Origin: Candidatus Rokuibacteriota bacterium
GTDB taxonomy: Bacteria > Methylomirabilota > Methylomirabilia > Rokubacteriales > CSP1-6
DNA length: 64,000 bases
Reading direction: 5' to 3'
Assembly (NCBI GenBank): GCA_003221515.1
Contig: QHSI01000129.1
Span: 6,646 to 70,645, forward strand
Below, piece after piece: positions 4,542 to 18,829 of the stretch. A program made the translations under genes and the position numbers. Within the stretch, counting starts at the first letter, position 1. The number at the start of each line of letters is the position of its first letter. Below the pieces are notes generated by a model. The model was not told the DNA's origin. It saw only the letters and a program-made list of their open reading frames with translations, and did no database searches.

Positions 4542-7500
4542 CTAGCGGTTCATGACCTCCGCCACCATTCGCGTCAGCGCGTCGGGCGTGAATGGCTTCG
4601 TGAGCAGCACGGTGCGCGGATCGAGCACGCCGTGGTGCACGATCGCGTCGCCCGTATAGCCCGACATGTACAGCACCTTCATCTCGGGCCGCGCCGGCGC
4701 CAGCCGATCGGCGAGGTCGCGCCCGCTCATCTCCGGCATGACGACGTCGGTCAACAGCAGGTGGATCGGCCCCGTGTGCCCGCGCGCGACCTCCAGCGCC
4801 TCGTTCGGGCCGCCGGCCGACAGGACCGAGTAGCCGGCGATCCCGAGGACCTCGGTGGCAAGCGAGCGGAGCTCGCCTTCGTCCTCGACGACGAGCACGG
4901 TACCGGAGGCGCGGACCGGCGGTACGGTCTCGACCGTGGCGCTCCTGTGGACGGGCGCCGAGACGCGCGAGAGATAGATGCTCACCGCGGTGCCGGCGCC
5001 CAGTGCGCTCTCGAGCCGCACGTACCCGTCGTGCTGCTTGACGATGCCGTAGACGGTCGCGAGCCCGAGCCCGGTGCCCTTGCCGACCCCTTTGGTCGTG
5101 AAGAACGGTTCGAAGACGTGGGCCTGGACCTCGGGGCTCATTCCGATCCCGGTGTCGCGCACGCGGAACATCGCGTGCGGTCCAAGGCTCGAGCCCGGAT
5201 GGGCGTCTACGAAGTCGGTGTCGAGCTCGACGTCGGCGGTCTCGATGCTCAGGCGCCCGCCCTGCGGCATCGCGTCGCGCGCGTTCACCGCCAGGTTCAG
5301 GATGATCTGCTCGATCTGCGCGGGGTCGGCCTTGACGCGGCCGAGCGTGGGGTCGAGCACCGTGATCAGCTCGATCGTCTCGCCGATCAGGGGCTTGAGC
5401 ATCTGGGCCATGTTCCCCACCACGTCGTTGAGATCGAGCACGCGCGGCTGGAGCATCTGCTTGCGGCTGAAGGCGAGCAGCTGCTGGGTGAGGGACGCCG
5501 CGCGGTCCGCCGTCTTCTTGACCAGCTCGATGTCGCGCCGCCGCGGGTCGTCGGCGGTGAGGCGGAGCAGGAGCAGCTCGGTCCGGCCGGTGATGACCGT
5601 GAGGAGGTTGTTGAAGTCGTGCGCGATCCCGCCGGCGAGCCGGCCGACCGCTTCCATCTTCTGGGCCTGACGCAGCTGCGCCTCGCTCTGGCGCAGCGCC
5701 TCTTCGGCGCGCTTGCGCTCGGTGATGTCCAGCACCGTCGACTGGATGGCGGGCTCGTTCTCCCAGAGGATTGCCGAGACCTGGATGTCGAACCAGACGA
5801 GCGAGCCGTCTTTCCTCACGGCCTGGGACTCGTACTGCGAAGGCACCGCCTCGCCCCGTAGCCGCGCCGCAAGGTAGCCCTCGAGCCGGGGCAGCTCGGC
5901 GGGCGCCATCCATCGGCGAGAGTCGATGCCGATGAGATCGCTCACGCTCTCGTAGCCCAGCATCCGCGCGAACGTCGAGTTGACGAAGAGCGTGACCCAG
6001 CTCCGGTGGATGTGGATGCCCTGGATGGAGCCTTCCACGAGCGTCCGGTACCGTCGCTCGCTCTCCCGCTCGCGCGCGAACAGCTGGGCGTTCCGGAGGG
6101 CGATGGCGGCCTCGTCGGCCAGGCGCGACAGGACGGCCTCGTCGTGATCGGTGAACGGTCGCGGCGAGCGGTTGGCGACATAGATGAGCCCGATCGCGCG
6201 ATCCGCGCTCTTGATCGGCACCGCCATGGCGGCGACGGTCTCGTTGGCACGGGCGCGGTCGAGATATGCCTTGTCGAAGGACGCGTCGTTCGGATAGTCA
6301 TCGGTCCGGCACGGCCGGCCGGTCAGGAGCGCGCGGCCGCCGAGACCCTTGCCCGGCTCGATGAGGTTGGGTCGCGCGGGCATGTCGCGCGCGCCGACGG
6401 CGTAACGCACGGTGACCGGCTCCTCGTCGTCCTCCCGGAACCCGATCAGCGCCAGGTCGCTGCGCGCGAGCTCCTTCGCCCCGTCGGTGATCCGCCGCAG
6501 CACCGCCTCGACGTCGAGGGAGACGGTGAGCGCACGGGAGACGTCGGCCAGGACCTCCGACTCCCGGCGGCGCCGCTCGCTGTCCTCGAACAGGCGCGCG
6601 TTCTCGAGCGCGAGCGCCGCCTGGGTGGCGAACGCCTGCAGGAGCTCGACCTGTCGCTGGGAGAACGGCCCGACGTCGTCCCGATACGTGACGAGCGCGC
6701 CGAGCACGCGATCACCGACGAGCAACGGCGTGGAGAGCACCGCCCGGTAGCCCTCGGCTTCGACCGCCGCGCGAGTCGTTGGTGCCAGGTCGAAGTCCGG
6801 ATCGTTGAGCAGATCCGCCGACCAGACGGGTCGTCGCTGGGCGATGGCGGCGGGCGTGGTGCCGTCGCGCGGGTGCCGGGGTCGCATGCCCGCGGGGAAT
6901 CCCCGGCTCATGCCGCGGCTGGCCTGGAACCCGAAGGGGCTCCCGGGCTCGCCGGCGTTCAGGAGCGCGACCGCCGAGCGCTGGGTCCCGAGCAGGGCGC
7001 AGGCGCGGTCCACGACGAACGAGAGGATCTCCTGGAGGTCGAGGGACGACGTGATCGCGCTGCCGAGCTCGGCGAGCGCCTCCGCCTCGTGGCGCCGCGC
7101 GGCGCTGTCGGTGAACAGGCGCGCGTTGCCGATCGCGACGGCGGCATGGTCGGCGAGGCCGAGCAAGATGTGCTCGTCGCGATCGGTGAGGATCCGGTCA
7201 TCCCGGTTCGACACCGCCAGGAATCCCTCGACCCCCTCCTCGATCTTGATCGGGACCGCCATGTACGCGCGCATGCCTTCCTCGCGCGCGATCGTCGCGA
7301 ACGTCGGGGAGATCCGGGGATCCTCGAGGTAGCGGTCCGTCCGGAACGGACGGCCGTTGACGAGGACGAGACCGGCGGCGCCCTGCCCCGGCGCGATGCG
7401 CATCGAGCGGTAGCCGTCGTACTCCGCGCCCGGCCAGTGGCGGAACTCGACGCTGTCGGTGCTCGGATCACGCAGCGCGACGAACGACATGTCGCTCTGG

Positions 7501-8219
7501 CACACCCCGCGGGCGCCCTCGGCGATTCGCTGCAGCACCGTCGACAGATCGAGCGACGTGTTGATGGTGCGTACCACCGCCGCCAGTAGCTCGGACTCGC
7601 GTCGGCGCCGCTCGGTCTCTTCGTAGAGCCGGGCGTTTACGATGGCGATGGCGGCCTGGTCCGCCAGGAGCCCGCAGAGATTCCGCTCCTCGGGCGTGAA
7701 GGCGCCGCGCTGGCCGAAGGCCACGATCAGCGCGCCGACCGCGCGCTCCTGATGCAGCAGCGGCTGTGCGATGCACGCGTGGAGGTCGGCTTCCCTCGCC
7801 AGCACCGGGTTGAGCCAGCGGGGATCCCGCTGCACGTCTTCGACGTACTCGGGCCGCCGCGACTGCAGGACGTCCGCGGACAGGCTGCCCTTGCGAGAGA
7901 CCGGCACGATCGTGGCAGGCGCCCGCGTCGCGAGCCTCGCGTCCGCCCAGTAGCTCCCGGCCTCCTTCAGCCGCTCGCCGCCGGCGTCGATCCAGACGTA
8001 CGCCATCTTCGCCTTGAGCAACGTCGAGGCCGCCTCGGCGATGCCGCGGAAGACGGCGTCGCTGTCGGTCGCCGACGTGATGAGGCGCGTCAGCTGGCTG
8101 AGCGTGGTGAGGCGTTCGGCGCGCTCCTCGGCCTGCTGGATCAGCCGGGTCCGCGGGCTCGGGGTCTTCGACGCCGTGCGCCGGCCCGGCCGCGGCCTGG
8201 ACTTACTCGGCTTGCTCAA
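4542..8219 (-). CDS. Hybrid sensor histidine kinase (4xGAF-PAS-HisKA-HATPase-REC)
   Basis: Four GAF repeats ending in NARL(Y/F), PAS (YESQAVRKDGS), GGIAHDFNNLL, EPFFTTKGVGKGTGLGL, C-terminal LLLTDVVMP receiver; TTG start uncertain. Confidence 0.9.
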   Translation of the reverse strand: MSKPSKSRPRPGRRTASKTPSPRTRLIQQAEERAERLTTLSQLTRLITSATDSDAVFRGIAEAASTLLKAKMAYVWIDAGGERLKEAGSYWADARLATRAPATIVPVSRKGSLSADVLQSRRPEYVEDVQRDPRWLNPVLAREADLHACIAQPLLHQERAVGALIVAFGQRGAFTPEERNLCGLLADQAAIAIVNARLYEETERRRRESELLAAVVRTINTSLDLSTVLQRIAEGARGVCQSDMSFVALRDPSTDSVEFRHWPGAEYDGYRSMRIAPGQGAAGLVLVNGRPFRTDRYLEDPRISPTFATIAREEGMRAYMAVPIKIEEGVEGFLAVSNRDDRILTDRDEHILLGLADHAAVAIGNARLFTDSAARRHEAEALAELGSAITSSLDLQEILSFVVDRACALLGTQRSAVALLNAGEPGSPFGFQASRGMSRGFPAGMRPRHPRDGTTPAAIAQRRPVWSADLLNDPDFDLAPTTRAAVEAEGYRAVLSTPLLVGDRVLGALVTYRDDVGPFSQRQVELLQAFATQAALALENARLFEDSERRRRESEVLADVSRALTVSLDVEAVLRRITDGAKELARSDLALIGFREDDEEPVTVRYAVGARDMPARPNLIEPGKGLGGRALLTGRPCRTDDYPNDASFDKAYLDRARANETVAAMAVPIKSADRAIGLIYVANRSPRPFTDHDEAVLSRLADEAAIALRNAQLFARERESERRYRTLVEGSIQGIHIHRSWVTLFVNSTFARMLGYESVSDLIGIDSRRWMAPAELPRLEGYLAARLRGEAVPSQYESQAVRKDGSLVWFDIQVSAILWENEPAIQSTVLDITERKRAEEALRQSEAQLRQAQKMEAVGRLAGGIAHDFNNLLTVITGRTELLLLRLTADDPRRRDIELVKKTADRAASLTQQLLAFSRKQMLQPRVLDLNDVVGNMAQMLKPLIGETIELITVLDPTLGRVKADPAQIEQIILNLAVNARDAMPQGGRLSIETADVELDTDFVDAHPGSSLGPHAMFRVRDTGIGMSPEVQAHVFEPFFTTKGVGKGTGLGLATVYGIVKQHDGYVRLESALGAGTAVSIYLSRVSAPVHRSATVETVPPVRASGTVLVVEDEGELRSLATEVLGIAGYSVLSAGGPNEALEVARGHTGPIHLLLTDVVMPEMSGRDLADRLAPARPEMKVLYMSGYTGDAIVHHGVLDPRTVLLTKPFTPDALTRMVAEVMNR

Positions 8220-9453
8220 TGTCGAAGCGCAAGCGGGCGTGGGCCTCGCGCAGCGCCCGCTCGACCGCGACGGGGGTGTCGGCGCGCGCGAAGATGAACC
8301 CGAGGTACTGCCAGCCCTCGGGGAGCGGCACCACCGTCTGGCCGGGATGCATCGTCACCGCGACTTCCTCGATCCCGTCGACCGCGGTGGCTTCGTCGCG
8401 CCCCGTCACCGCGCGCAACCGACCCGCGCGCGGAATCGGGATCATCATCACGCCGGCGGCTCGCTGCTCACGCTCGAGCGAGTCCAGCGGGCGGCCGAGG
8501 GCGTGGCAGAGGATCAGCTCCTCGAGGCTCACGCCGGTGCCGAAGCGTAGCGTCTGGGAGCAGAGGCCGCCGATCGAGCGCGCCGCGACCTCGAGGACCC
8601 ACGGGCCCTGCTCGTTGACGCGCAGCTCGGCGTGGACGGGTCCTTCGGTCAGTCCGAGCGCCGCGCACGCGTCGCGGCTCACCGCCGCGATGCGGGCCTG
8701 CGTGGCCCCAGGCAGCCGGGAGGGCGTGACGTAGATGGTCTCCTCGAAGAACGGCCCGTCGAGCGGATCCGGCTTGTCGAAGAGGGCCAGGACGTGGAGC
8801 GTGCCGCCGACCAGCAGCCCTTCGAGGGCGACCTCGCGTCCGGGCACGAACGCCTCGACGAGCAGGGTGCGCCGCGCTTTGTCGGGAAGCGAAGCCTCGA
8901 CCTCGGCCAGGATCGCCGCGATGCGCCCGAAGGCCGCGACGAATTCTCGCGCGTCGTTCGCGCGGATCACGCCGCGGCTCGCCGAGAGCATGCGCGGCTT
9001 GAGGACGCACGGGTACTCGACCTGCTGGGCGATGGCGCGTGGATCGTGGCTCAAGTCGACGAGGCGGAAACGAGGCACCGGAACGGACGCGTCGGCGAGG
9101 CATCGGCGCATCGCGTGCTTGTCGCGCGCGGTGGTGACGGCGGGCAGGGGATTCGTCTTGAGCCCGAGCCGCGCGCTGATGGCGGCGGCCACGACCGTGG
9201 TGAGATCGTCGACCGCGACGACGGCGTCGATCGGCCGGCGGCGCGCGAGCCGGGCGATCGCCTCCGCGCTGGCGGACGCATCGTTGAAGTCGAGCGTGAC
9301 GAGGTTGTCGGGCGCGTGCTCCTGCAGCGTGCTCGGCCGCTCCGAGGCGCACACGAGCTCGACGCCCATCCGGGTCGCGGCGGCGACGAACGCCTCGGTG
9401 CGATACGTCGTGGTGGGGAGCAGGAGCAGCAACCGGCTCGCCGAAGTCGGCAC
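8203..9453 (-). CDS. ATP-grasp domain ligase
   Basis: YPCVLKPRMLSASRGVIR, LLVEAFVPGREVALEG, GPVHAELR, VLEVAARSIGG. Confidence 0.85.
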   Translation of the reverse strand: MPTSASRLLLLLPTTTYRTEAFVAAATRMGVELVCASERPSTLQEHAPDNLVTLDFNDASASAEAIARLARRRPIDAVVAVDDLTTVVAAAISARLGLKTNPLPAVTTARDKHAMRRCLADASVPVPRFRLVDLSHDPRAIAQQVEYPCVLKPRMLSASRGVIRANDAREFVAAFGRIAAILAEVEASLPDKARRTLLVEAFVPGREVALEGLLVGGTLHVLALFDKPDPLDGPFFEETIYVTPSRLPGATQARIAAVSRDACAALGLTEGPVHAELRVNEQGPWVLEVAARSIGGLCSQTLRFGTGVSLEELILCHALGRPLDSLEREQRAAGVMMIPIPRAGRLRAVTGRDEATAVDGIEEVAVTMHPGQTVVPLPEGWQYLGFIFARADTPVAVERALREAHARLRFDIEQAE

Positions 9454-9488: not shown

Positions 9489-9770
9489 CTAGGCTTTGCC
9501 CGGCGTGTAGTACGGGTTGTTGCCCGCGGCGTGATCGGTCGTGTCGAGCACTTCCGTGACCTCGGGGAGCTCGTCCTTGATCAACCGCTCGATCCCCGAC
9601 TTCAACGTGACGTCCGCGGCGCCACAGCCCTGGCAGCCGCCGCCCATCTGGAGGTAGACACGATTGTCCTGCACGTCGATCAGCTCGACGAAGCCGCCGT
9701 GACCGGCAACCGCGGGATTGATCATCGTGTCGATCAGCTCTTGAACTTTCGTCTTGAGTTCAGCGCTCAT
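9489..9770 (-). CDS. NifU/NfuA-type Fe-S carrier
   Basis: INPAVAGHGG, GGGCQGCG (CxxC), TLKSGIE; GAGGTG RBS. Confidence 0.9.
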   Translation of the reverse strand: MSAELKTKVQELIDTMINPAVAGHGGFVELIDVQDNRVYLQMGGGCQGCGAADVTLKSGIERLIKDELPEVTEVLDTTDHAAGNNPYYTPGKA

Positions 9771-9780
9771 GCGGCACCTC

Positions 9781-11211
9781 TCAGATGGATACTGTACCCG
9801 AGATCCGGCTCAGGGCCAACTGGCCCTCGGTGGGCTCTGCTCAGCAGAACCAGGGCTCGGTGAGCCGTGGCGCCCGCTTCCGGCCCGCGGCTGGCGCTGG
9901 GAACGATTGGTGCTCGGCGCCCGCGGCCCGGCCGGCCAGCGCCCGCACGCGATCGAACGTGATGGCCGCGTCCTCTCGCTGGGCGGCCGCGGCGGCGACG
10001 GCGGCCGACACCCCCGCATGCAGCGCCTCCATGCCCGGGTCCGGATGCGTCCATCGGTAGTGGAACTGGTCCCTCACCAGCGGGCCCAGGTAGGGGCGCA
10101 GCGCCGGACCGTCGAGCAGGAGCGATCCGGGCGGGACCAGGAGGCGGATCGAGTACTGCACGGGATCGATGGCGTCGACGAGTTGGTGGGCCTCGACGAA
10201 GTCCAGCAGCTCCCGGTAGTCGTCCAGGGTCGTCCACGGCGTGAAGGGCACCCACGTCGGGCGCAGCGTGATGCCGGCCGAGCGCACGGCATCGAGCGCG
10301 GTCTCGATGTCGGCGCGGGTGTGGCCCTTGTCCAGATGCGCCAGGACGGTGTCGCTGAGCGACTCCGCGGCGGTGACGATGAACGCGCATCCCTGCCGCG
10401 CGAGCTCCGGCAACCGCTCTCGGTGGCGCAGCAGGTGCTCGACCTTCGCCGTGAAGTCGAACGTGAGCCCGGGGAACTCCGCGTGGACCGCCTGCGTGAC
10501 GGCCAGCGCGTGGCCCGGGCCGTTCAGGAAGTCGGGGTCGCCGAACGTGATGTGGGTTGCCCCCGCCGCCACCTGCTGCCGGACGTCGGCGAGCAGCACC
10601 TCGAGCGGCACGACGAAGAAGCGGCCGCCGTAGACGGGCGGGATCGGGCAATGACGGCAGAGATGCTTGCACCCGCGGCTCGCCTCGACGTGGCCCGCGA
10701 GCTCGAGGCCGCCGTCGCGCTCGAGCTGCGCGTATCTCTTCAAGATCGGAAGCTTCGCGCGGCTCGGCACCGGAAACGGCAGCTTCTCCAGCGTCGGCGC
10801 GACGGGGGCGTCGCGCGTCCGCCCGACCGCGCCGGCCTCCAGCCGCTGAACGAGGCGCACCAGGGCGGACTCGATCTCGCCGCTCATCACCGAGTCGCCG
10901 ACGCCGGACAGCAGATGGTCGGCGTTGAGCGTGGCGTAGAGCCCGTAGAAGGCGATGTAGCAGCCGGGGTTGATGGCCCGCACGCGCTCGGCGACGACGA
11001 CCCCGAGACGGAGCGCCGTGTGCATCGGCACCGAGATCGCCACGAGCTTCGCGCGCGCGACGCGCTCGGCGTCGAGCGGGTCGACCGACACGTCGACCAC
11101 CGCCGGCGAATAGCCGGCACGCTCGAGGAACGCGGCCGGCCAGGCGACCGTGAGGGGCTGGTGGCCGAGCTCGTAGCAGGCGACCAGGAGGATCGCGCCG
11201 GGCTCCTTCAC
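9781..11211 (-). CDS. CUAEP-tail radical SAM selenoprotein (ArsL-like, N-terminal B12-binding-like domain); UGA at 9843-9841 read as Sec, 476 aa
   Basis: CKHLCRHC (CxxxCxxC); the frame continues past TGA as WFC-U-AEPTEGQLALSRISGTVSI to TGA at 9783-9781, which abuts the RBS of the nfu gene. Confidence 0.85.
9800..9838 (-). promoter_or_regulatory. Candidate bacterial SECIS hairpin
   Basis: mRNA AGGGCC-AGUU-GGCCCU (9827-9812); loop begins 19 nt after UGA and has G at position 2; lower stem can extend through CCG/CGG and GAG/CUC. Confidence 0.65.
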
Positions 11212-11279: not shown

Positions 11280-11489
11280 ATGAGCGTCAAGATCACGGCC
11301 CGCCCGAATGGTCCGCTCCTGGTCGAAGGCGAGTGCGAAGTCTACGATCCGACCGGCGCCCGCATCGACACGGCGGGCCAGCCCAGGATCGCGCTCTGCC
11401 GGTGCGGGGGTTCCTCGACGAAGCCCATGTGCGATGGGACGCACAACAAGATCGGCTTCCAGGCTTCCGAGGCAGCCAAGAAGAAGTAG
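11280..11489 (+). CDS. CDGSH iron-sulfur domain protein
   Basis: AAGGAGGA RBS; ALCRCGGSSTKPMCDGTH. Confidence 0.9.
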   Translation: MSVKITARPNGPLLVEGECEVYDPTGARIDTAGQPRIALCRCGGSSTKPMCDGTHNKIGFQASEAAKKK

Positions 11490-17154: not shown

Positions 17155-17918
17155 TCAGCTTGCCCCGGGGTAGAACGCGTCGCGGCCGCGCTGATAGGTC
17201 CGCTGCTGCTGCGCCGGGTTGCGACTCACGAGCGGACGCATGAACATCGGGTGCGTCGCGCTGCGGACCTCGTGCTCGATGGTGAAGAGCACCTTCGAGG
17301 TCTCCGGATCGACGATGTCCTTGAAGCGGTACTGCACCGGGTTCGACTCCTCGCTGATGAGGCCGCGCTCCTTCAGCCACCGGTGCGGGCCCGAGAAGTT
17401 CGTCACGTAGATCGCGATGTGGTGACCGTCGTACGGCACCTCGGGCTCGGCGGTCTCACGGAAGATCAATTGCTGCTTGGCGCCGACCTGCACCTTGGAA
17501 TGCCGAGAGTCATGTCGCCGAACTCGGGACCGGGCGCGTGGAAGCGCATGCGGTTCCCCCAGGGACAGGTCACGCTGATGTACTTGTCCTCGGCGGCGCA
17601 CATGAACTTCGTGCCCGCGAGCTTCTCGCGGGCGGCCCCCAGTCGCATCTTCAGGCCTTCGATGTCCGGAATCACGAAGCCGACGACGCCGCGGAGCACT
17701 TCCGGCTTACCGGTCGGCATGTGGAACTGCTGCTGTCCCGCATTGATCCACATGTTCTCGGTGCCGGTCATGATGTACGGGTCGCGGGTGAGCCCGAGAG
17801 TCGTCACGTAGAAGTTGGTCGCGGTCGCCTGATCCGGGATCTTCACGTTGACGTGCTCGAGCAGGATGATGTTGCCGATGTCTTCTGCGGTCCGATCGAA
17901 CACCTTGTCCCCTGGCAT
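17155..17918 (-). pseudogene. VOC-like (two-domain glyoxalase-type) protein split by a frameshifting deletion near 17497
   Basis: N-half LLEHVNVKIPDQ...GDMTLGIP and C-half KVQVGAKQQLIF...YDGHHIAIY...FTIEHEVRS are in different frames; GGGAGG RBS before ATG 17918. Confidence 0.7.
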
Positions 17919-17995: not shown

Positions 17996-18829
17996 ATGGA
18001 ATTCGGTCTGTTCACGGAGTTCCACAGTCCGCCGGGCGTGAGTGAGGCGGCGGCATTCGACGAGTCGCTGGCGCAGATGAAAGCGGCCGAGGATTTCGGA
18101 TTCGACGCGGTATGTTTGGCCGAAATCCACTTCCAAAAGGATCGATCGGTGCTGGCCGCGCCGTTGATCATCGCGTCCGCGCTGGCCGCCTGCACGCGAC
18201 GCGTCAAGATCGGGATCGCCGTCCAGGTTTTGCCGCTGAGCCACCCGTTGCGTCTGGCCGAAGACGTCGCCACCGTCGACCATATTTCCAAGGGACGACT
18301 GGAGTTCGGCGTCGGGCGCAGCGGGCTGCCCGGGCACTACCAGGGCGTGAACATTCCGTACAGCGAGAGCCGCGACCGCTTCCTCGAGACCCTCGACATA
18401 TTGCGTAAAGCGTGGACCCAGGAGCGCTTTTCACACCAGGGGAAGTATTTCCAGTTTCAGGACCTCTGCATCATGCCCAAGCCGTTTCAGAAGCCGCACC
18501 CGCCCATCCGCATCGCACAGAAGCGAGCACGATGGGCTTCTTCCGGTCGATCAGCTCGGCGCTCCGGAAATTCGACGGCGCGACCGCGCAGACCGCGGAA
18601 GCGCGCGCGGCGCGGGCCAATCGCCTCGCCGAAATCTCTTACGACGAGATCCTGAGCGAGTACGCCGTGTTCGGCACACCCGAAGCGGTGGTGGATCGGC
18701 TGCAGCAGCTGCGCGAGCAGATGGGGTTTCGACGCTCTCGACGTGGATGAACCCAGGCGGTCGAATCCCAAACGAGCGCGTCCTCAATCCATGCGCTTGT
18801 TCGCCGAGCGCGTAGCGCCGTTGTTGTAA
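17996..18829 (+). pseudogene. LLM-class flavin-dependent oxidoreductase with one internal deletion and two -1 frameshifts
   Basis: MEFGLF, AEIHF, LAEDVATVDHISKGRLEFGVGR, PKPFQKPHPPIRIA; remaining pieces in other frames to SMRLFAERVAPLL-TAA. Confidence 0.8.

Follow-up and report, generated by a model that had tools for sequence, protein, structure and literature searches.

A predicted Cys-Sec tail beyond an in-frame UGA in a radical SAM gene of Candidatus Rokuibacteriota

The 64,000-nt stretch of DNA analysed here (69% G+C; Candidatus Rokuibacteriota, contig QHSI01000129.1), which we call the window and whose positions serve as coordinates throughout, carries on its minus strand a gene for a radical S-adenosylmethionine (SAM) enzyme with a called reading frame that stops at a UGA codon. 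We conclude, with a probability of roughly 92%, that the product of this gene is a selenoprotein 476 residues long, a member of the CUAEP/CCAEP-tail radical SAM family, and not the 456-residue protein reported by gene callers. This conclusion is carried by membership of that family, by alternation of selenocysteine (Sec) and cysteine codons at the same site across phyla, by conservation of the tail that follows, and by a covarying hairpin that accompanies the codon only where it is UGA. Actual incorporation of selenium, and its dependence on SelB, would be expected by analogy with established bacterial Sec decoding. The recoding event is already known as a feature of a catalogued selenoprotein family, and a preliminary description made from the sequence of the window had interpreted it correctly; it is not new, because NCBI already curates NF040546 as a selenoprotein family. 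What we add is covariation support for the family's selenocysteine insertion sequence (SECIS), the contrast in this hairpin between Sec and Cys forms, an alignment of the Cys-Sec (CU) pair with the substrate-binding Cys-Cys pair of the arsinothricin biosynthesis enzyme ArsL, a set of conserved ligase and iron-sulfur partners, and a second hairpin with the UGA in its loop.

The called gene body has a strong coding signature, with a G+C fraction at third codon positions (GC3) of 0.93. The preliminary description had pointed out that this open reading frame (ORF) ends at PWFC-TGA and that the frame then stays open to a further TGA at 9783-9781, so as to reach the next ribosome-binding site (RBS), and this is what the sequence contains (Table 1). 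The codons around the UGA read TGC-TGA-GCA-GAG-CCC (9846-9832, minus strand), which is the C-[U/C]-A-E-P motif of the family. With the extension, the distance to the ATG of the downstream NifU-like gene (9770) falls from 70 to 10 nt. Across the family, the motif P-R-L-T-E-x-W-F-C-U-A-E-P-T is strongly conserved and follows a variable linker rich in Ala, Pro and Arg, and the AEPT..Q[L/F] portion of the tail is conserved in Sec and Cys forms alike. One detail of the preliminary description needs correction: it had offered AEPTEGQLALSR as the peptide to look for by proteomics, but since there is no cleavage before Ala the expected tryptic peptide is LTEPWFCUAEPTEGQLALSR.

Table 1. Features of the radical SAM locus, in window positions.
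Feature	Positions	Strand	Details
Radical SAM gene body as called	9844..11211	-	456 codons; GTG start at 11211; ends ...R-L-T-E-P-W-F-C
In-frame UGA, predicted to be read as Sec (residue 457; predicted Cys456-Sec457 pair)	9841..9843	-	homologous codon is TGA, TGC or TGT in relatives
Predicted read-through tail, AEPTEGQLALSRISGTVSI	9784..9840	-	19 sense codons; A-E-P-T-E-G-Q-L-A-L-S-R-I-S-G-T-V-S-I
Second TGA, predicted true stop of the selenoprotein	9781..9783	-	directly beside GAGG RBS (9780-9777) of the NifU-like gene
Putative SECIS hairpin	9812..9827	-	6-bp stem AGGGCC/GGCCCU; loop AGUU (9821-9818); -10.8 kcal/mol
Second hairpin, GGUUCUGC-UGA-GCAGAGCC	9833..9851	-	8-bp stem from the W-F-C and A-E-P codons; UGA forms the 3-nt loop
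NifU-like/NfuA C-terminal-domain gene, directly downstream, co-oriented	9489..9770	-	93 aa; PF01106 2.7e-24; NCBIfam NfuA C-terminal half
L-amino-acid-ligase-type ATP-grasp enzyme, next downstream, co-oriented	8203..9453	-	416 aa; Pfam ATP-grasp_4, LAL_C2, ATPgrasp_N
CDGSH iron-sulfur domain gene, divergent	11280..11489	+	69 aa; PF09360 2.9e-17; 68 nt between the two start codons

Scanned with the tail included and Sec written as Cys, the protein matches the NCBIfam equivalog model NF040546 ("CUAEP/CCAEP-tail radical SAM (seleno)protein") at 686.2 bits (E 2.1e-206; cutoff 500), so that the named family invoked in the preliminary description exists and includes the window gene. Residues 7-466 align with profile positions 1-467 of 468, and the curated model therefore itself spans the read-through tail. 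Pfam matches place a B12-binding-like domain at the N-terminus (PF02310), followed by a radical SAM core (PF04055) with the cluster motif C181-x3-C185-x2-C188, whose three cysteines are invariant in our multiple alignment. This order of a B12-binding-like domain, a CxxxCxxC core, a variable linker and a W-F-C-[U/C]-A-E-P tail is that of NF040546 in general; we find no structural difference, and the window gene is an ordinary member. The best protein matches and the best genome loci are labelled Rokubacteria/Methylomirabilota, and the nearest locus from a species-representative genome is 78% identical to the window gene. The family is catalogued in NCBIfam yet barely visible in the literature. 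Our literature search gave one relevant preprint, which counts NF040546 as one of a small number of selenoprotein families that have a Cys-Sec motif and describes its structure and function as "not well known" (Haft, 2022). A 2026 review covering prokaryotic selenoproteomes mentions neither NF040546 nor CCAEP in its main text, family table included (PMC13188914).

The database record of the family is almost uniformly truncated. A search of 5.8 billion proteins returned at least 8000 candidates, of which we inspected the closest 120 (75-99% identity). In 119 of them ...WFC is the exact end and one is shorter by two residues, bearing out the earlier expectation that gene callers would cut the protein short. 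Two of these 120 entries (P0099 and P0105) are named by NCBI after the NF040546 family and still lack both Sec and the tail. A different picture emerges from DNA. A genome scan confirmed at least 586 of 599 candidate stretches as relatives, and among 80 loci taken from GTDB species-representative genomes, 75 encode W-[F/Y]-C, one codon, and then an in-frame [A/S]-E-P. The codon in question is TGA at 68 of these 75 loci and TGC or TGT at the other seven. Carriers belong to Methylomirabilota, Planctomycetota, Acidobacteriota, Chloroflexota, Poribacteria, Gemmatimonadota, Nitrospirota, Armatimonadota, Myxococcota and others. Homologs that stop at WFC and lack a conserved AEP extension had been named in advance, along with a lack of Sec machinery in the genome, as what would overturn the proposal; what we find is that every TGA locus (68/68) continues into [A/S]EP. 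The extension varies from 10 to about 35 residues, and even the shortest, at 10 residues, spans the hairpin described below. Of the best 150 representatives of clusters made at 50% identity, 38 stop at W[F/Y]C, 40 go on as W[F/Y]C-C-[A/S]-[E/D]-P, four have ArsL-like RCC[L/I]KC ends, and the remainder are fragments or variants such as CCAAP. The Cys homologs with a CCAEP tail that the preliminary description anticipated are thus present both among the genome loci (7/75) and among the representatives (40/150). Judged from the alignment, the pattern is one of classic Sec/Cys alternation at a single column.

The putative SECIS lies immediately 3′ of the UGA. It had been described as a 6-bp AGGGCC-AGUU-GGCCCU hairpin with a G in its loop, and we recover it exactly so, with 13 nt separating its first stem base from the UGA, 19 nt separating its loop from the UGA, and G as the second loop base. 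According to published rules (PMC13188914), a bacterial SECIS element should have 3-9 nt in its apical loop and 4-16 bp in its upper stem, carry a G within the first two positions of the loop, usually with G or U next, leave 16-37 nt between the UGA and the apical loop, and fold with a free energy no higher than -7.5 kcal/mol. With a loop of 4 nt, a stem of 6 bp, a spacing of 19 nt and an energy of -10.8 kcal/mol, the window hairpin falls within all four published rules and its stem covaries, which agrees with the SECIS-like character first ascribed to it. For a single sequence such agreement is only moderately unusual: 21 of 292 ordinary TGA stops in related loci (7%) also pass the rules, though only three (1%) do so at a spacing of 19-21 nt. 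In the Sec forms, by comparison, 68 of 68 sequences (the window and 67 loci) have a loop that starts 19-20 nt past the UGA and is closed by a helix, and 49 of 69 (the window and 68 loci) pass every rule as an isolated perfect helix, with 32 distinct hairpin sequences. These 49 have stems of 5-8 bp, loops of 3-6 nt and spacings of 19 or 20 nt. Most Sec sequences that do not pass form helices of 5-6 bp whose energies (-5.7 to -7.1 kcal/mol) narrowly miss the cutoff, and the hairpins of two Poribacteria loci are weaker (-2.9 and -3.2 kcal/mol). At the Cys-form loci the hairpin is found in none of seven.

The stem varies greatly in sequence while remaining paired: GGGCC/GGCCC, GGACC/GGUCC, GGGUC/GACCC, GGGGC/GCCCC, CCGGCC/GGCCGG and CUGGUC/GACCAG all occur. 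We assessed covariation in two ungapped alignments, one in the 4-nt-loop register and one in the 3/5-nt-loop register, and found pairs changed on both sides at 6/8 and 5/8 positions, respectively (one pair is CG in 14 sequences, UA in 10 and GC in 9). Paired cells amount to 83% and 78%; sliding the 3′ arm by 1-3 columns lowers this to 26-57%. In the loop, the A-G that belongs to a Gln codon (CAG) never varies among 64 aligned Sec sequences; U comes next, replaced by G in a few, and the base after that is always U. The loop is encoded by a Gln codon and a Leu, Phe or Val codon, and Gln followed by Leu or Phe also occurs in most Cys-form tails. The encoded residues vary jointly with pairing kept (G-Q-L-A, D-Q-F-G, G-Q-L-D, G-Q-F-A, G-Q-V-D), which points to selection on the RNA. 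It would appear that the SECIS is built around conserved protein positions and that RNA-level selection operates only where the codon is UGA, and we regard the comparative evidence for this predicted element as decisive. The hairpin resembles the fdhF-type SECIS of E. coli and the bSECISearch consensus in that it forms a stem-loop within coding sequence immediately 3′ to the UGA, its loop having 4 nt and G then U at loop positions 2-3. It differs in being a short perfect helix with no bulged U. RNAalifold, applied to 18 Rokubacteria-type sequences, predicted the 6-bp hairpin and a UGA-centred hairpin, and no conserved lower stem that would extend the SECIS. An Rfam scan of the whole window at gathering thresholds gave no match, and so no curated RNA family covers the element.

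The UGA-centred hairpin overlaps the conserved motif itself. It has a predicted energy of -11.0 kcal/mol, equalled by one of 200 shuffles, and is kept with at least 8 bp at 60 of 68 Sec-form loci and two of seven Cys-form loci. For the Ala that follows the UGA, 60 of 63 Sec loci use GCR (GCA or GCG, pairing with the U of UGC), compared with a background of 52% in the same genes and with two of seven Cys loci (Fisher p 9e-5, with no correction for phylogeny). The hairpin may be a by-product of the conserved peptide motif, or it may have an effect on decoding.

Decoding can be envisaged as follows. A ribosome arriving at the UGA (9843-9841) would have the hairpin (9827-9812) 13 nt ahead of it, inside the coding sequence; the AGUU apical loop would recruit SelB-GTP-Sec-tRNA(Sec), Sec would be inserted, and translation would go on for 19 codons to the TGA at 9783-9781. 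One metagenome-assembled genome of Methylomirabilota has 63 predicted selenoprotein genes, and the phylum is reported to be rich in selenoproteins (PMC13188914), from which it follows that the lineage uses Sec.

Several observations weigh against reading the gene as a selenoprotein. No selA, selB, selD or tRNA-Sec was found in the window by a Pfam scan of 40 ORFs, Rfam and ARAGORN, and ARAGORN detected no tRNA of any kind in the window and no tRNA-Sec in 60 related loci. The absence of sel genes says little, however, because the window is 64 kb of a multi-megabase genome. In the searchable literature we found no experimental selenium incorporation for any NF040546 member. From one sequence alone the hairpin signal is only moderate: the 16-nt hairpin has a z-score of -3.06 at its energy of -10.8 kcal/mol and is matched by seven of 200 shuffles, and its wider context of 47-81 nt is ordinary for a genome of 69% G+C (z -0.10 and -1.71). 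The covariation scores exceed those of 500 of 500 shuffles in both alignments, but these shuffles ignore shared ancestry. Finally, the comparison with Cys forms comprises seven loci from about three lineages.

These points need to be set against what the alternatives would have to explain. Were the UGA a real stop, the enzyme would end at Cys456 and the sequence beyond it would be an untranslated RNA element that might, for instance, set how the NifU-like gene is expressed. Such an element would suit the position of the region just upstream of the NifU-like RBS, the RNA-level selection on the hairpin, the lack of Sec genes in the window and the fact that the closest 120 database entries all end there (one of them two residues short). 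It would leave unexplained, however, why the codon is Cys in seven loci and 40 representatives with the same AEPT..Q[L/F] residues following, why the frame is open through [A/S]EP in 68 of 68 TGA loci whether or not a NifU-like gene comes next (41 of 76 loci have none), and why the curated NF040546 profile includes the tail. Moreover, the hairpin is missing exactly where the codon is Cys, which is not how a regulatory element related to NifU would be expected to behave. We consider a real stop extremely unlikely.

Read-through could also take place with no Sec involved, either through a near-cognate tRNA-Cys or tRNA-Trp or because UGA has been reassigned across the lineage. Low-level near-cognate decoding of UGA is known in bacteria, and the window shows no Sec machinery. 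Yet many window genes end at TGA, with the coding signature stopping there and the extension looking non-coding, and UGA must therefore be a normal stop in the source organism; the carriers come from at least eight phyla that use the standard code. Nor would such decoding give any role to a hairpin that covaries, has G-U in its apical loop and stands at SECIS spacing, and the codon alternates specifically with Cys, the usual counterpart of Sec. On balance we judge decoding of this kind very unlikely. A further alternative is that the TGA arose by error, in sequencing or in assembly, or that the gene is decaying and has recently acquired a nonsense mutation, and the window does hold at least two frameshifted-looking genes near 17.2-18.8 kb. 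The same TGA nevertheless occurs in 68 independent assemblies and at the end of the 120 nearest proteins, which come from separate samples, and the gene has the coding signature noted above (GC3 0.93) and covers its profile over the full length. The comparative sequence data have already refuted the error reading, to which we attach a negligible probability. Insertion of Sec at this codon accordingly remains our preferred account.

What the Cys-Sec pair might do is suggested by ArsL, the closest characterised relative of the window protein at 33-36% identity over the whole length. Reconstituted ArsL cleaves SAM at the C-gamma-S bond and transfers the resulting 3-amino-3-carboxypropyl moiety (ACP) to As(III); its C-terminal cysteines bind As(III), and their removal or mutation abolishes the product while SAM cleavage stays. 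Common to the two enzymes are the CxxxCxxC motif for the cluster and, close to the C-terminus, a vicinal pair. When the sequences are aligned, C456 and U457 occupy the same two invariant Cys columns as the vicinal Cys-Cys of the ArsL ending RCC[L/I]KC. The enzymes also differ in several respects. ArsL ends in RCCLKC, whereas the tail of the window protein reads WFC-U-AEP... and lacks the third Cys; the window protein has a linker of about 50 residues inserted before the tail; and the window gene has no arsM, arsQ or other arsenic genes with it, its partners being the NifU-like protein and the ATP-grasp enzyme. No ars genes were found near the window gene in a Pfam scan of the window, nor among the neighbour clusters of 76 loci. 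The ArsL model NF040542 is the next-best match after NF040546, at 312.7 bits against a cutoff of 450, and we reject the possibility that the window protein is ArsL itself on the grounds of this score, the missing third Cys and the lack of an arsenic context. Because the pair aligns with the As(III)-binding Cys-Cys of ArsL, the most economical reading would give the Cys-Sec pair the task of holding a soft atom of the substrate at the active site of the radical SAM enzyme. Against this functional reading stands the fact that its evidence consists of the ArsL alignment only, with a score below cutoff and no arsenic genes nearby. Alternatively, the pair could serve as a redox couple like that of thioredoxin reductase, or as a hydrogen-atom donor.

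Motifs of the CU type cluster in proteins of heavy-metal and organometallic chemistry (Haft, 2022). Among CU selenoproteins, HgcA, the SAO-locus proteins and the MerT variants resemble the window protein in having a vicinal Cys-Sec near the C-terminus. In animal thioredoxin reductase, with its GCUG tail, the Cys-Sec selenenylsulfide sits on a mobile C-terminal arm. All of these proteins have folds unrelated to the window protein, in which the pair is located 19 residues from the end of a radical SAM enzyme. For P0124, a natural Cys-form homolog with 54% identity, the AlphaFold model has a mean predicted local distance difference test score (pLDDT) of 94.8 and a predicted template modelling score (pTM) of 0.93. 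In this model the linker has a pLDDT of 65-78, and residues 441-460, which include the invariant Cys449, have a pLDDT of 88-90, which suggests that the tail of the Cys-form homolog may be docked and not disordered or a free arm. A fold search with the same model placed AprD4 nearest (6fd2; template modelling score 0.66, E 4e-18), followed by TsrM and OxsB, and AprD4 is likewise the best sequence match in the Protein Data Bank (PDB; 4.4e-07). However, identity to AprD4, TsrM, OxsB and MgmA, all radical SAM proteins with a B12-binding domain, is only 14-19%, and none of them has a Cys-Sec or Cys-Cys tail. Sequence and fold searches of our PDB copy found no structure of ArsL or of the CUAEP family.

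The genes around the radical SAM gene recur across the family to varying degrees. A NifU-like homolog is near the gene at 35 of 76 loci, mostly directly downstream, and at the other 41 none is nearby. An ATP-grasp homolog lies within 6 kb at 36 of 76 loci from at least six phyla, including one Cys-form locus; the window copy gives sub-threshold NCBIfam matches to the BacD and DdaF ligases. The divergent CDGSH gene is found in the same position and orientation at 17 of 76 loci, all of them Rokubacteria/Methylomirabilota, and a YggX-type Fe(2+)-trafficking gene is located upstream at 14 of 76, mostly in Chloroflexota. About a third of the loci, for example those of Poribacteria, have no NifU-like, ATP-grasp, CDGSH or YggX partner. 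The window contains the full Rokubacteria arrangement, with the CDGSH gene and, divergently from it, the radical SAM, NifU-like and ATP-grasp genes. A gene for a hybrid sensor kinase of 1225 aa (4542-8219, minus strand), with four GAF domains, PAS, HisKA/HATPase and a receiver domain, comes immediately downstream of the ATP-grasp gene and overlaps its end, and homologs of this kinase are found downstream in 10 related loci.

A concrete functional hypothesis can be drawn from three facts, namely the alignment with the Cys-Cys pair of ArsL, the covarying SECIS confined to Sec forms, and the recurrent NifU-like and ligase partners. We raise the possibility, which we consider unlikely as it stands, that the CUAEP-tail enzymes are non-canonical, ArsL-like enzymes in which the tail holds a soft metalloid or chalcogen (other than arsenic or besides it), the ACP group of SAM is transferred to it, and the co-conserved ATP-grasp enzyme of the L-amino-acid-ligase type ligates the resulting non-protein amino acid to a second residue. 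The evidence for a pathway of this type consists only of the tail alignment, the biochemistry of ArsL, the ligase partnership at 36 of 76 loci and the weak similarity to BacD and DdaF. If true, it would amount to an unrecognised and very widespread route to an organo-element amino acid or a dipeptide antimetabolite in Rokubacteria, Acidobacteriota, Planctomycetota, Chloroflexota and others. The natural Cys-form homologs are expressible in ordinary hosts.

The finding also has a bearing on annotation. As stored, the window gene and practically all database copies lack 20 residues, the Sec among them, and as a result the record loses the residue most likely to do the chemistry. The family concerned is a large one (at least 586 relatives confirmed among the 599 stretches, and at least 8000 protein candidates) and is distributed over many phyla associated with soil, sediment and sponges.

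We scanned the window for other in-frame TGA codons flanked by coding signal both before and after. A single further candidate, at 17157 on the minus strand (...PGAS-TGA-CRWEP), has a Cys close by; it was dropped, as it lies in a frameshifted-looking gene with no Pfam match. Two genes in this part of the window have a broken appearance. A luciferase-like monooxygenase gene (17996-18655, plus strand) covers only the first 171 of 314 profile positions and seems to be continued in another frame at 18412-18750, and a gene of unknown function (17948-17466, minus strand) seems to be continued in another frame at 17601-17155. Both could be assembly errors or pseudogenes. Farther along, a long polysaccharide biosynthesis cluster, unrelated to the Sec finding, occupies about 37400-63000 on the plus strand. 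It encodes a GNVR chain-length determinant, AAA and ParA-like ATPases, a sugar transferase, a Wzy-like polymerase, two AMP-binding enzymes, a KAS III-like protein, a GNAT protein, an epimerase/dehydratase, a flippase, an asparagine synthase, a GT4 glycosyltransferase and a polysaccharide deacetylase.

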